A stretch of DNA of 63,188 nucleotides, taken from the IMG/VR virus record IMGVR_UViG_3300045988_166537. The stretch is one strand, 5' to 3'. The notes below the pieces were generated by a model that saw only the letters and a program-made list of their open reading frames with translations, searched no databases and was not told the origin of the DNA. Of the stretch, positions 7,317-12,250 are shown one piece after another. Made by a program: the position numbers and the translations under genes. This DNA comes from a virus. Position 1 is the first letter of the stretch, and each line of letters opens with the position of its first letter.

Positions 7317-7685
7317 CTAATCAAAACGACACGATGTAATACATTCCGGATAACATTCTGCACCACAATGATTCTTGCATATGGCGGGTTTATATGCCAT
7401 CAGTTTTCTTATCTCTCCTCCAAACATGTCACCTGGATATATTTCATAGCAATCCCAACATACAAACTTATCCATATATTCGTTATAGAATAATGGAGCC
7501 CCACATTTAGGGCAGAATATAGGATATTTTTCATCTCTATCAAGATAAGCTTGACTTGTAGTTAGCTCTTCTTCATCAAACTTTGCATCACAACATGTAC
7601 ATTCATATTTCTTGATTATGGAGTTATATTCTATTTCTCCTTGATCACATTCTGTACAAACCATTCCTACAAGATATTCTTTCAT
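7317..7685 (-). CDS. Multi-zinc-ribbon protein (122 aa)
   Basis: Four CxxC pairs are visible: CTEC, CTCC, CPKC and CWDC. An AAGGAGG SD is present. Confidence 0.75.
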   Translation of the reverse strand: MKEYLVGMVCTECDQGEIEYNSIIKKYECTCCDAKFDEEELTTSQAYLDRDEKYPIFCPKCGAPLFYNEYMDKFVCWDCYEIYPGDMFGGEIRKLMAYKPAICKNHCGAECYPECITSCRFD

Positions 7686-7841
7686 AATTCAAAAACCTCC
7701 TTAACTCTTACTCCTCCGTCTACTAGTTACTAACTATACTGCAATTATACTTTGACGACTGTAAAAACTAAAGAGATTTTATAATATATTATAGCTTTGT
7801 AAAGTTCGTTTCCGAGATGATAAATTTTGCTGAAAACAGCC

Positions 7842-8126
7842 CTCTGCCCGGATGCCCACTTTTATTTCCCATTTATATATATTTATATAATATTTTTTTC
7901 ATATTAATTTAAGAAAAAAAGTGGGAAAGTGGGCAGAAACCCCGCAAACCCGCATAAATACTAGGTTTTTCGCTGCCCACTTTTGTTTTTAAAAGTGGGC
8001 AAAGTGGGCAGAAAAGTGGGCAAATGGCCACTTTTTACAAAATTTTTGGGTCTGCTACCGCCTCAAAAATGGGCAAAACACCCACAAAACCGGGCAGAAG
8101 CCCAGATATTTTTGCAAAAGTGGGCA
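7842..8126. repeat. Iteron array (AAGTGGGCA) with an AT-rich core; candidate replication origin or multi-site protein-binding locus
   Basis: Direct copies start at 7919, 7927, 7993, 8002, 8014, 8067 and 8118. Inverted copies start at 7853, 7974 and 8025. The outer inverted pair is CTCTGCCCGG (7842) / CCGGGCAGA (8090). An AT-rich stretch spans 7866-7918. The interval is non-coding. Confidence 0.6.
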
Positions 8127-8140
8127 GAGATTTTTTGCTT

Positions 8141-8587
8141 TTATTTAGAGGTTGTGTAGCAACGTATACTCATTGAACCATTATCTTTGGCGTCCCAACT
8201 GATATCAAGTTCATACCTTCCATCGGCATCGAGATATCTAGCACTACCACCATCATCAGCACATACGTATTTTTCACGATCGGTAAAAATGTTACCAGCA
8301 CTTACCTTATCATTATATGCTTTATAATCATCTTGACTTGCTGGAACGACATTAGCTGTATATCTATCGCTCCTGTCAAACATAATCGACACATTTGCAT
8401 CCGAAAACATACTATTTATATCAGGTAACATAGCAGATATTTTTGAGTCTTCACTCTCACTCTCCGTACTGACACTCGCACTACTACCATTACCATCTGA
8501 ACCAGCATTATTACTATCACCACCGCATCCAACAAGTCCAACACACATAGCTCCAACTAACAAACCTATAAATAATCTCTTTTTCAT
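8141..8587 (-). CDS. Lipoprotein (148 aa)
   Basis: The signal peptide with lipobox reads 'MKKRLFIGLLVGAMCVGLVGCGG'. A GAGGAGG SD is present. Confidence 0.8.
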   Translation of the reverse strand: MKKRLFIGLLVGAMCVGLVGCGGDSNNAGSDGNGSSASVSTESESEDSKISAMLPDINSMFSDANVSIMFDRSDRYTANVVPASQDDYKAYNDKVSAGNIFTDREKYVCADDGGSARYLDADGRYELDISWDAKDNGSMSIRCYTTSK

Positions 8588-8623: not shown

Positions 8624-8884
8624 CTATTCGCCTACGCTATCATCAACCTGCAAATACTCATAATCGTCAGGATCAATCCAGCACCTGACAACCTCGTATC
8701 TTCTCAGAAATAGCTTGTCACCGCGCCACAACTGTCTACGTATACTACCTCGCGCTATTCCCAAAAACCTGGCCAAATGCGCTTCACTCATGATCCCAGC
8801 ACAACTACCATTATTATGTTGATCGTATACAATATAAGCCCTCATCACTGTATGCCCATCCCTACGCAATTTCATCACCACCAT
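8624..8884 (-). CDS. HTH DNA-binding protein (about 86 aa; start uncertain)
   Basis: 'SEAHLARFLGIARGSIRRQL' is helix-turn-helix-like. Candidate starts are 8896, 8884 and 8875. Confidence 0.55.
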   Translation of the reverse strand: MVVMKLRRDGHTVMRAYIVYDQHNNGSCAGIMSEAHLARFLGIARGSIRRQLWRGDKLFLRRYEVVRCWIDPDDYEYLQVDDSVGE

Positions 8885-9068
8885 TCTTCTCTGCATATAA
8901 ACACTCGGTCCTGAATTTGCAAAAAGAGCAGGCAAGCCCTCGTGAAAGAGTCTTACACTTACTCATCAAAGCCGTCTTATCTCTATGTAACTGCAAGACC
9001 TGCCCCTGTAATTTTTTAATCTCTTCATCTCTCAAAGTCGCTTTTACAATCTTTTTCCGTATATCCAT
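8862..9068 (-). CDS. Hypothetical protein (68 aa)
   Basis: Track ORF with a coiled-coil-like N-terminus. Confidence 0.55.
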   Translation of the reverse strand: MDIRKKIVKATLRDEEIKKLQGQVLQLHRDKTALMSKCKTLSRGLACSFCKFRTECLYAEKNGGDEIA

Positions 9069-9924: not shown

Positions 9925-10569
9925 TCATATATGATCACCGCCCCCTTCCGTATCTGTAGTATTAACCTTGCACTTTATCATTGTCATTCTTTCATCAAGG
10001 GCTTTTCTCTTTGCTGCCCATTCTTCGGCAAGGCATTCGACATCCGGTGATAATCTTCCCACGGTATACATCATAGTAATTAGAAGGGCGCGACGCTCTT
10101 TATCTAGCATATATTCAGCAACCTTGAGATCGTCCTCTGTACCTGCCAATAGTTCATGAAATGGTTTTGTAATTTTATCCTCAATATCATCTATACCCTT
10201 TATCCTCTCAATACCTTCAGGATGTTTATTATTATGGGCTGCTATATATTCGGACATGTCTTTAAAATTTATATTTCGCGTCCTCTCTATAGCCTGTTTT
10301 GCCTTTAATAGTTGATCGTATGGACTATCATCAGAATTATGCCGCCACTCGATGTGAGCATACACACTTTTATGTTTCCTCAACCTCCTACTTAGCCAGA
10401 CAAAACCTTCTAATATCCCGCTCACAATCCAAATTGGAATGAAACAGGCTATTACTATTGGCCAAAATAGAATATATAAAGGGTCATACTCTTCATCCAT
10501 CATTTTTGATATAAAACAACCGATCACTGCATAAAACATTATCACTACAATACTAATTATTATCTTCAT
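9925..10569 (-). CDS. Membrane protein (214 aa)
   Basis: Track ORF with two N-terminal TM segments. Confidence 0.75.
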   Translation of the reverse strand: MKIIISIVVIMFYAVIGCFISKMMDEEYDPLYILFWPIVIACFIPIWIVSGILEGFVWLSRRLRKHKSVYAHIEWRHNSDDSPYDQLLKAKQAIERTRNINFKDMSEYIAAHNNKHPEGIERIKGIDDIEDKITKPFHELLAGTEDDLKVAEYMLDKERRALLITMMYTVGRLSPDVECLAEEWAAKRKALDERMTMIKCKVNTTDTEGGGDHI

Positions 10570-11328
10570 GAGCCGTCCTCCTTATCTTTTCACCCCACTC
10601 GGGATGTTCCTTAGCATATTCTCTGGTATCATAGACTTTCACACATTCGCCATCGATTATAGGAAAAGAGTCTGTCTGATCTGTGCCCTCTTCGGTCTCC
10701 TTTTTCTTTGAATCCGCAACAGGATAACAAAATACTCCATTCTTACGTAGCCCTTCTAACTGCTCTTTAGTCAACTTAATGCCAGCTGATTTGAGAATAT
10801 CAAACACCTGTTTGATATCACCAGTCATTTCTGGTATCGATTCTTTTACCTCGCTGGTAATCAACTCTGAATATGGCAAACTCTCAATCCACTTGCAGAA
10901 CTCTCGCCACTCATCCAGCTTATGATTCTTACGCTGCCTATAGATATTAGCCAACACCTCGTAATTCAACATAACATTACGAGTCTGGTTGTAGCTGCTT
11001 GGAAGGAGCTGTATCATCTGCCACCAAAATTTTTTACGCTGGGCTATGACATGTTTTCTTTCTGAGTCTGTTAAATCTGTTCTTTTTAATTTTTCATCAG
11101 CAGCAAGATATAATCTCCTAGCGAAATTTAACTCATAACAAACATCAAATTCAACTCTATGTTTGTAATAAGGGGCATCCTCGCCTATTAGAGCAATATC
11201 GTCACTATCTATTATGGCTAACTGCTCAGTTGAAAAATCCTCCAGTGTAAACTCCTTCTCCTGAATCTTATGCATGGTACTACAGCTGTTAGCCACAGTA
11301 CCTACCTTATATGTATCAAATTCTTTCC
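10553..11328 (-). CDS. ThyX (Thy1)-like protein, exon 2 (aa 113-370 of the spliced product)
   Basis: The frame stays open upstream of the track ORF start through 'KEFDTYKVGTVANSCSTMH'. It joins exon 1 to give '...ITAPLYWWKEFDTYKVGT...'. Confidence 0.75.
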
Positions 11329-11913
11329 CATTAATGGACTATCTTTTACCCACTAAAAATAGTGAGGACACCATTTCGGTTTTCATGAGCTTCGTTTCCT
11401 AAAACCCAGCTACGTATCAATAGTAGCCCTACTCCCCCGCCCAGAAGGCATAGGGGATAGTCTCTACAGGTTCATTTCAAACACACATGTTAAATATAAA
11501 ACTTTAATCCAAATCTAAACTATAGCCTTCAATCTCGGCTTTAATTTCAAGCTGGTACAAATATTGCCCCATAGCACTTGCTTGTGATTTCCACTGCTCC
11601 ATGGGACACTTCGGTTTAAAATCAAGCTTACCAGCCTCTCTCTTTATGATCATCGAATGGAGTTTATTATATTTATCCTTAACAAAATAATATTCTCCAA
11701 TAGCTCTACTCTTATAATCATCAGATTTTAGTAATTCAATAATCTTATCAAATGCCATAATAATTGCCTCCTTAAAATAATAAATTCTTAGTTCAAAAGT
11801 TATATGTGTGTTTGAAATGTTTCCCACGGGATTCCAATGGGCGGTTCCCCGTTAGCCATAAAATATGACCCCTGCCGATAAGCAGGAAAAGTGTTTCATT
11901 GGCAGAAAGAACT
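11329..11913 (-). ncRNA. Group I (IA-like) self-splicing intron, 585 nt
   Basis: The 5' exon ends in U (11914). The guide 5'-UUCUUUCUGCCAAU (11911-11898) pairs with the 5' exon AUUGGU (P1, with U.G) and with the 3' exon GAAAGAA (P10). An R-like GUAGAGACUAUC lies at 11467-11456 and an S-like AAGAUAGUCC at 11345-11336. The terminal G is at 11329. Confidence 0.85.
11504..11758 (-). CDS. Intron-encoded ORF (84 aa), no recognisable homing-endonuclease motif
   Basis: It has its own SD, TAAGGAGGC. The ORF is looped out by a perfect 16-bp stem (11819-11804 with 11488-11473). Confidence 0.6.
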   Translation of the reverse strand: MAFDKIIELLKSDDYKSRAIGEYYFVKDKYNKLHSMIIKREAGKLDFKPKCPMEQWKSQASAMGQYLYQLEIKAEIEGYSLDLD

Positions 11914-12250
11914 ACCAATATAAAGGCGCTGTGATTCTCACATATACAGGAATCATTCGCATATACTTCCTATGCTCTGTACCTGCATCTGAAAGCTTCT
12001 GCATGAGAGAGTGGTCGTCGTTACCCAACTCAAAGTATCCCTCAACATATTCTACGCGTTCACCTTTTAAGTCTTCTTCTGTAGGATCATCAATCTTATA
12101 CCGATTACATGGCTCGCCGATTTCTCTACGAAAATAATGCCCATGACTACTATCACTCTTCTCCCATGAATTCATAGGATTCCTCATGCCCTCTATCACA
12201 AATTCCATCTGCTCTGGACTCGCCAGAACCACGTGCTCTAAATTAATCAT
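11914..12250 (-). CDS. ThyX (Thy1)-like protein, exon 1 (aa 1-112 plus 1 nt)
   Basis: The track ORF 11912..12250 ends at a TAG created by the first intron bases. 'GTEHRKYMRMIPVYVRITAPLYW' resembles the ThyX core preceding the RHR motif. Confidence 0.75.

Follow-up and report, generated by a model that had tools for sequence, protein, structure and literature searches.

The IMG/VR virus record IMGVR_UViG_3300045988_166537, a DNA of 63,188 nucleotides (nt) analyzed at its full length and called the window here, carries on its minus strand a gene for a protein with a ThyX-like fold that is split in two. Exon 1 (12250..11914) and exon 2 (11328..10553) are parted by 585 nt (11913..11329), which with high confidence we take to be a functional group I intron of the td type that restores the ThyX-fold open reading frame (ORF), splicing itself being predicted from the sequence. 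Inside the intron lies a third ORF, of 84 amino acids (aa), which belongs to the Sequestin family. In the public record (Caudoviricetes sp.) all three ORFs are named "hypothetical protein," so that one putative enzyme appears in the annotation as two such proteins. The principal features of the locus are as follows.

11914 to 12250, minus strand: exon 1 of the ThyX-fold gene, 112 codons and the first base of Trp113; homologues continue uninterrupted beyond it.
11329 to 11913, minus strand: predicted group I intron, subgroup IA, td-like, 585 nt, with omega-G (the terminal guanosine) G11329 as its last base; absent from contig L197.
11504 to 11758, minus strand: 84-aa ORF of the Sequestin family (PF21825), with the ribosome-binding site (RBS) AAGGAGG at 11773-11767, 8 nt upstream.
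10553 to 11328, minus strand: exon 2 of the ThyX-fold gene, starting GGAAAGAA, 258 codons and the stop.

The ORF at 11912..12250 has the C terminus ...RITAPLYW, followed by TAG, and the frame of the ORF at 10553..11296 is open further upstream, where it reads KEFDTYKVGTVANSCSTMH. Joining 11914 to 11328 gives ...APLYW-W-KEFDTYKVGT in frame and a product of 370 aa (337 + 776 nt). These ends, the open frame and the join had been set out in a preliminary description of this DNA, and its coordinates and strings were all correct. The W-W-K peptide can be obtained from one nucleotide junction only, 11914/11328. The last base of exon 1 is U11914 and that of the intron is G11329, again as described, and the ligated exons are predicted to read ...UAUUGGUGGAAAGAA..., that is, CGCCTTTATATTGGT followed directly by GGAAAGAATTTGATAC.

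Comparison with uninterrupted homologues, a check proposed in the preliminary description, gave a continuous match across the junction. The joined protein aligned to PHROG 6721 (phrog_6721) in one stretch spanning the junction (E = 1e-76), and a search of 5.8 billion proteins returned thousands of relatives; where these cover the query they are unbroken polypeptides, and RITAPLYWWKEFDTYKVGT does not vary among them. In uninterrupted homologues the junction is spanned by the peptide APLYW-W-KEFDTYKVGT, and the best 80 viral loci of the host protein are all uninterrupted. The syntenic contig L197, which aligns with the window on both flanks, carries an uninterrupted version of the protein (P0001, 94% identical). 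Its alignment ends at window position 11914 and restarts at 11328, with no gap on the L197 side (3337 adjoins 3338). The 585 nt are therefore a clean presence/absence polymorphism with boundaries exactly as predicted, and the claim of a split gene is borne out both by the invariant junction peptide and by a contig that lacks exactly 11913..11329. The interrupted site codes for the most conserved peptide of the protein. Group I introns and the targets of homing endonucleases typically lie in the most conserved peptide.

The 5' end of the intron carries two adjacent guides for the splice sites.

11904 to 11913, minus strand: P10 guide AGUUCUUUCU, pairing with exon-2 bases 11328-11319 (GGAAAGAAUU).
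11898 to 11903, minus strand: internal guide GCCAAU (P1), pairing with the exon-1 end AUUGGU (11919-11914) over 6 base pairs (bp), with U.G at the splice site.

The P1 pairing of GCCAAU with AUUGGU and its U.G wobble, both previously read from the letters, are present, kept across alleles and compensated in a relative of the intron that sits in another gene. These relatives interrupt a type II topoisomerase-like gene at the Toprim motif DADVDG and place the guide GCGUAU opposite exon GACGU, with two compensatory positions relative to the window. Within the ThyX-like host gene itself, compensation in P1 is incomplete, because in alleles with the Tyr codon UAC the fifth pair is a C.A mismatch. 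P10 was also correctly recognized, but its length had been understated: the entire leader AGUUCUUUCU pairs with exon-2 bases +1 to +10, making 10 bp. A P10 of 8-13 bp is kept across 11 distinct alleles, and one lineage (L191) uses a shifted register in which the guide GUUCAUUUCU pairs with exon positions 5-14. The rules of U(-1) and omega-G hold in four of the four junctions checked, those in the Toprim gene being fixed by protein continuity.

We propose that splicing follows the standard route of group I introns, that GCCAAU pairs with the exon-1 end to form P1, placing the U.G wobble at the splice site, and that an external guanosine held in P7 would then attack after U11914. The adjacent guide AGUUCUUUCU would position exon 2 through the 10-bp P10. 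Omega-G (G11329) would move into the guanosine site, and the free 3'-OH of exon 1 could attack after G11329. Ligation of the exons would yield ...UAU UGG UGG AAA GAA... and so restore the 370-aa protein.

The same intron family also occurs in a further host gene, recognized by KYVFNP...CHDYIH (L102, L132, L100, L178, L097, L123, L114, L190). In this group the guide equivalent is GACAAU or GACAGU, and no P1 with U.G can be drawn at the junction fixed by the protein. Contig L137 holds two introns of the family (680-940 and 8786-9040) in two genes, at the Toprim site and in the ThyX-like gene, and in both the guide is GCCAAU after an exon ending in UGGU.

The catalytic core of the window intron would consist of P3, P4-P5, P6/P6a, P7, P7.1, P7.2 and P8, without P9. 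Its elements, in the order of transcription, are listed here.

11890 to 11894, minus strand: P3 5' strand ACACU, pairing with GGUGU (11372-11368); pair types UA/CG/AU and AU/GC.
11871 to 11886, minus strand: hairpin HA (CCUGC/GCAGG), between the P3 5' strand and the joining segment J3/4; 4/4 scored pairs compensatory.
11855 to 11869, minus strand: hairpin HB (GUCAUA/UAUGGC), immediately 5' of J3/4 (UAA); relatives have an insertion hot-spot here.
11826 to 11852, minus strand: P4 (ACGGGG/UCCCGU), enclosing the P5 hairpin (11844-11834) and matching the td block AACGGGGAACC...AAUCCCGUG; P4 is invariant and P5 covaries.
11473 to 11819, minus strand: P6a, a stem of 16 perfect bp (11819-11804 with 11488-11473) with the ORF in its loop; 11/12 pairs compensatory.
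11457 to 11462, minus strand: P7 5' strand GACUAU, in the R element (11467-11456), pairing with AUAGUC (11342-11337) in the S element; invariant.
11434 to 11456, minus strand: P7.1 hairpin CCCC(U)..GCC/GGC..GGGG; 4 compensatory pairs.
11378 to 11429, minus strand: P7.2 junction, GG (11429-11428) with CC (11379-11378), enclosing hairpins 11427-11409 and 11408-11386.
11368 to 11372, minus strand: P3 3' strand GGUGU, preceded by CGAAAU as in td.
11349 to 11366, minus strand: P8 hairpin; an insertion hot-spot in relatives.
11329 to 11342, minus strand: P7 3' strand AUAGUC, then 8 nt (CAUUAAUG) up to and including omega-G, without a P9 hairpin.

This helix model, drawn up on td-like logic, was scored on an alignment (A4) of 24 non-redundant cores in which inserts were replaced by NNNN. 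Across the alignment 96.9% of cells are paired, against 38-44% when the partners are slid, and changes on both sides of a pair, which are compensatory, occur in 41 of the 71 pairs; none of 500 shuffles reaches any of five measures. Covariation is seen in P3, HA, HB, P5, P6a, P7.1, the P7.2 junction with its two hairpins, and P8. The helices between P7 and the P3 3' strand that mark subgroup IA, P7.1 and P7.2, are 99-100% paired and hold 14 compensatory pairs. The P7.2 helices considered separately are fully (100%) paired, with 10/11 pairs compensatory, and the P7.2 region includes an extra hairpin with the conserved loop UUUUAGGAAACGAAG. The 585-nt RNA also folds more stably than 100 shuffles (z = -4.05). 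Both the 16-bp stem that loops out the ORF (11819-11804 / 11488-11473) and the R-like (11467-11456) and S-like (11345-11336) elements that form P7 (GACUAU/AUAGUC) had been noted beforehand and exist as reported, with one correction: C11456 belongs to P7.1 and not to P7, and it covaries with G11434 as C-G/U-A.

Three alternative pairings were dropped on the evidence of contigs L084, L093 and L095. Changes in these copies break a helix drawn by eye between GGUCAC and GUGUCC, while HA, HB and P7.1 covary, and likewise a second by-eye helix, GGCAGGGG/CCCCUAUGCC. A td-like P3 that would use the 3' strand of HB is disrupted in the same copies, and the HB hairpin itself covaries. As a separate observation, HA and the adjoining U-rich run (window 11888-11860, minus strand) were flagged as a site resembling an intrinsic terminator within the intron. 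The resemblance is probably fortuitous, a by-product of the structured core; premature termination there, if real, would affect splicing and ORF expression alike.

The element belongs to a sizeable family. Core motifs of 21 nt and 16 nt retrieve more than 100 viral contigs, and profiles of the two intron halves pair into 79 copies in viral contigs. More than 50 viral contigs carry the same element in the same gene at the same codon, very diverged alleles included. Copies without an ORF measure about 260 nt (L095, ~262 nt; L093, L103, L108), and in other copies three hot-spots, namely the HB, P6a and P8 loops, have taken up inserts of 60-1,000 nt. Some copies (L137, L184, L115, L098) have inserts in two or three loops together, with cargo of up to ~2 kb.

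A covariance model of the family scored the window in two halves (163 and 80 bits) and also found the intron of Enterococcus phage EF1 (96 and 28 bits) and that of a Lak megaphage (75 bits). The EF1 intron lies between fragments of the DNA polymerase III alpha gene and has a GIY-YIG-like ORF in its P6 loop. Across 7.3 kb of phage T4, the best match was the 3' core of the td intron, with a minor match on td P4, and the alignment keeps the order P7, P7.1, GAGUAGG, P7.2, CGAAA, P3', P8, J8/7, P7'. The assignment to group I in the preliminary description is thus upheld by a covarying helix model and by a core homologous to the T4 td and EF1 introns.

For the host protein, the proposed likeness to ThyX held at the level of the fold, and the sequence-level match did not follow. 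An AlphaFold2 model built on a diverse alignment reached a predicted local distance difference test (pLDDT) score of 82.8 and a predicted template modeling (pTM) score of 0.71, superseding a poor first model from a shallow alignment (pLDDT 67.5). Foldseek returned 146 chains of the PDB at E <= 0.001, the top 50 of which are all ThyX (best E = 1.1e-6; template modeling [TM] scores 0.5-0.63, normalized to the target). In the viral structure library BFVD, phage ThyX/Thy1 proteins come right after the family's own uncharacterized members. No match to ThyX was found by sequence in Pfam (PF02511, Thy1), in NCBIfam, or in phmmer and profile searches of the PDB; four of 42 divergent members reached Pfam Thy1, at E >= 0.001. 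The ThyX motif RHRxxS is not recognizable by eye in ...WWKEFDTYKVGTVANSCSTMH.... The protein family is large (4,160 clusters at 50% identity), and structural modeling supports the description "ThyX-like fold," whereas the function of thymidylate synthase is not established. The protein also has a C-terminal extension of ~95 residues (window 10553-10830, residues ~276-370) with pLDDT below 60; it is present in some homologues only, others ending near residue 270.

The ORF in the P6a loop scores 43.6 bits with Pfam family PF21825, whose cut-off is 24.8; the match has E = 2.9e-11 and spans profile positions 2-56 of 61. Gene-context labeling names this family "Sequestin," and with this match the ORF is not a homing endonuclease. 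The earlier reading of the intron had overlooked that its internal ORF is, by sequence, a member of an anti-defense family. Sequestins are phage sponges that have been shown to bind 3' cyclic ADP-ribose (3'cADPR) and to block the Thoeris defense system (bioRxiv 10.1101/2025.07.12.664507). T4 Y16O is a member of the family, and introns are nowhere mentioned in that study (bioRxiv 10.1101/2025.07.12.664507); neither the window protein nor its IMG/VR contigs are among the rows of the study's table that were listed. We aligned the window ORF with six Sequestins from Table S1 of the study and two free-standing phage homologues (alignment A6). R18, E22 and Q59 fall in invariant columns and correspond to SequestinA R8, E12 and Q47, residues that are essential or conserved there, and a hydrophobic pattern, L33/M63/Y66/L70, is invariant as well.

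A homologue is present in 96 annotated phages, 91 of them Streptococcus phages. In the three free-standing copies that were inspected the gene is an ordinary small one, with no core beside it according to the intron model. Among the 79 intron copies, eight contain the ORF; these eight cover at least three host alleles, and the ORF is 89-100% identical across them. The exact 84-aa protein is found on 306 contigs and lies within this intron in 8/8 contexts shown.

Taken as a whole, we think it very likely that the locus is a subgroup-IA, td-type intron in a ThyX-fold gene with a Sequestin-family cargo in its P6a loop. This loop, which is the endonuclease site in relatives, here carries the 84-aa gene with its own strong RBS, and the protein probably soaks up the Thoeris signal 3'cADPR, which could allow the phage to evade host immunity. 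The simplest reading is that the endonuclease bay of a mobile intron was refilled with an anti-defense gene. Having no endonuclease of its own, the intron copy would spread vertically, by recombination, or with endonucleases supplied in trans.

The observations that weigh against this interpretation bear on both the cargo and the intron. Position R61 of SequestinA, essential by mutagenesis, is Lys73 in the window ORF and Arg in the free-standing homologues, and the ORF shares 17-29% identity with the tested Sequestins. Although 10 of 13 tested Sequestins inhibited type I Thoeris, three were inactive, and none inhibited four other systems (bioRxiv 10.1101/2025.07.12.664507). There is also no sigma-70-like promoter inside the intron on the gene strand. 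Since such a promoter is absent, either the pre-mRNA or the excised intron probably serves as the message for the ORF, and expression of the ORF would thereby be coupled to an early nucleotide-metabolism operon. One could accept the intron and still doubt an anti-Thoeris sponge, on the grounds of the lysine, the inactive and narrowly acting relatives and the low identity. The ORF would then be an inactive hitch-hiker, a binder of some other ligand, or a maturase-like or DNA-binding helper of the intron. We regard this as the less likely reading in view of a Pfam score far over the curated cut-off, the unchanging pocket residues (R, E and Q) and hydrophobic pattern, the consensus RBS, and the conservation of the ORF between intron copies of different host alleles and across its 306 contigs. 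Judged on sequence features, the cargo is reasonably likely to be an active nucleotide-signal sponge.

As for the intron, the exact sequence of the spliced 370-aa protein is absent from a collection of 15 billion proteins. P4 and P7 are invariant across the family and rest on homology to td, without covariation. The match to T4 td is weak (14.9 bits, E = 1.5e-4), though positionally exact, and E values from the model are rough. P9 is absent: only CAUUAAUG (8 nt) lies between P7' and omega-G, and 5 nt in L108. The 5' strand of P3 begins 3 nt past the guide, and HA and HB stand between P3 and J3/4; neither this arrangement nor the missing P9 is canonical. Finally, the Rfam model of group I introns (RF00028, Intron_gpI) has no match to the window at the gathering score, nor to the region at E <= 10, and seven related loci and an ORF-less copy also lack a group I match in Rfam. 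The absence of a covariance-model hit had been named beforehand as grounds for rejecting the intron, and no hit occurred, but the test proved invalid. In control searches of phage T4 (L196), RF00028 missed the td intron (7550-8565) at E <= 1 and scored the nrdB intron (2509-2749) at 35.7 bits, under the 50-bit threshold. Because RF00028 also misses the proven T4 td intron, its negative carries no weight here, and a model that is blind to the whole td-like clade would systematically miss such phage introns.

P2 and P9 are peripheral helices and not catalytic. In the window intron no P2 lies between P1 and P3. The copies in the ThyX-like gene have no P9, with 5-8 nt from P7' to omega-G, and combine this with a P10 of 8-13 bp. 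Members of the family in other genes (L144, L132, L102; L001 2630-2665) retain the P9 hairpin, and in the window the unusually long P10 probably compensates for its absence by taking over the positioning of the 3' splice site. The arrangement of P3 (window 11894-11855; EF1, L001 1700-1790) may be an undescribed topological variant of subgroup IA. The lack of an endonuclease gene, of P9, of a recorded spliced product and of an Rfam match would also suit a decayed group I relic that no longer splices, leaving the ThyX-like gene a pseudogene or made as two polypeptides. Such decay is improbable given that compensatory changes maintain the core in dozens of diverged copies, that both exons are open and in frame in every copy examined, and that P1 and P10 are kept. 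Moreover, an allele left unspliced would be null, with the most conserved peptide hit, and the allele with the intron nonetheless occurs on hundreds of contigs.

The public annotation, with its three separate hypothetical proteins, would fit two genes that are separate by nature, with an unrelated small gene (a moron) lying in the middle and the RNA left unprocessed. This is effectively refuted, because homologues are continuous, the core covaries and L197 lacks the insert. The homologues that are single polypeptides number in the thousands, and their junction peptide is invariant. At its conserved region exon 2 offers neither a start codon nor an RBS, and the sequences on either side of the small gene make up a ribozyme core that is conserved and covaries. 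We give next to no credence to another kind of interruption, for which no supporting point was found, as size and structure fit a group I intron with td homology, in-frame stops exclude an intein, 585 nt far exceeds any known translational bypass, and a group II intron would leave both its missing reverse transcriptase and the lack of a group II domain match in Rfam unexplained.

Related introns carry a variety of other genes in their loops. Contig L097 has a GIY-YIG and helix-turn-helix (HTH) gene in the P6 loop, and L110 has an HNH_3/NUMOD4/I-HmuI-like gene in the P8 loop within the same ThyX-like host gene. In many copies (L084, L085, L090, L133, L140, L141, L146, L165, L174, L191, L195) the P6a loop contains a conserved ORF of ~233 aa, which has a pair of zinc-finger-like repeats, CxC...CGC, and the motif RFDFAIF...YNGxQHY at its C terminus. 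It has no Pfam match; it may encode a homing endonuclease that has yet to be classified, perhaps one of the PD-(D/E)XK type. In the P8 loops of L177, L113, L193, L185 and L125 there are ORFs of 134-293 aa starting M..Y..HHGVKGQKWGVR (Pfam DUF7211). None of 14 small loop ORFs taken from relatives scored above threshold against Pfam. A shared leader of ~40 nt, CGAAAAnnACAnCTCCTATAATGAAAGGAG(A)GTGATnTnTATG, opens 23 different small ORFs in 19 related introns, in HB, P6a and P8 loops alike (for example, L089 at ~7210, L087, L127, L131, L125, L184, L177, L115, L162, L182, L130, L124, L155, L142). It contains a TATAAT box and could fold into a CUCCU/AGGAG hairpin that covers the Shine-Dalgarno sequence, so resembling a cassette boundary or an expression signal common to these ORFs. 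The window ORF does not have this leader.

We tentatively suggest that the HB, P6a and P8 loops might serve as cargo bays for accessory genes of phages, in which case the window copy would deliver an anti-Thoeris sponge. If so, the intron would render insertion into a conserved, early-expressed gene harmless and would co-express the cargo with it, and a useful cargo would shield an intron without an endonuclease from the cycle of decay and loss. The numerous other small loop ORFs of relatives, which often follow the shared leader (CUCCUAUAAUGAAAGGAG), would then be a reservoir of further anti-defense or accessory genes.

The core motif was also found in metagenome-assembled genomes (MAGs) of Oscillospiraceae and Lachnospiraceae (L209, L210), and intron cores flank an identical ORF on contigs of 200-870 kb (L198-L205). 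The long contigs and the occurrence in MAGs make it probable that the window represents a temperate phage or a prophage in gut Clostridia.

Group I introns of phages, gut phages included, are well known (PMC3984707; PMC12880540), and the intron alone adds to a known kind. In the literature searched, a group I intron in a thyX-type gene was not reported, nor was an anti-defense gene inside a group I intron; for the ThyX-fold host gene no published precedent was found, and the unusual part is the cargo. If the cargo is functional, self-splicing introns would be more than selfish elements, acting as vehicles and safe harbors for counter-defense genes. Their loops could be mined for new anti-defense genes, and the persistence of an intron without an endonuclease would be explained.

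The window intron and the T4 td intron have core blocks in common (AACGGGGAACC / AAUCCCGUG; GACUAUCCC..GGGGAGUAGGG; CGAAAC-P3'-P8-J8/7-AUAGUC) and the same helix order, P7-P7.1-P7.2-P3'-P8-P7'. Both loop an ORF out of P6, and both sit at a conserved site of a gene in nucleotide metabolism. The T4 td intron is a group IA2 intron in the thymidylate synthase ThyA and encodes the endonuclease I-TevI. In contrast, the host gene in the window has the unrelated ThyX fold, and its intron lacks P9-P9.2 and an endonuclease. In td, P2 precedes P3 and the 5' strand of P3 abuts J3/4, whereas in the window two hairpins come after that strand. The window intron further differs in the additional hairpin of its P7.2 region and in its Sequestin-family cargo. 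The closest annotated relatives of the RNA are the introns of phages EF1/EF5 and Lak, with ~80-84% identity over the P7-P7.2 region. They share the arrangement of P3 (AUGGU/GCCAU in EF1) and likewise hold an ORF in the P6 loop, but they occupy other host genes, carry an ORF of the GIY-YIG endonuclease type and retain the P9 hairpin.

Among described Sequestins (PF21825), the window protein is like the others in its above-threshold family match, its size class (~60-90 aa) and its pocket R/E/Q. Described members are free-standing or fused with Tad2 or Acb4, and the window protein differs in the Lys at the R61 position and in an N-terminal extension of 10 residues. Group I introns also split genes of other human-gut phages: they are abundant in essential genes of the "Jug" jumbo phages, where about half of those tested were confirmed by metatranscriptome reads (Sci Adv 2026, PMC12880540). 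However, those introns lie in other phages and genes (terL, nrdD, DNA polymerase) and hold homing endonucleases or no ORF, with no anti-defense cargo described. The nearest precedent for cargo other than a homing endonuclease is the bacterial IStron, a subgroup IA2 group I intron carrying an IS605 transposase (PMC3984707). The cargo of an IStron lies at the 3' end and serves the element's own mobility, whereas that of the window intron sits in the P6a loop and would benefit the phage.

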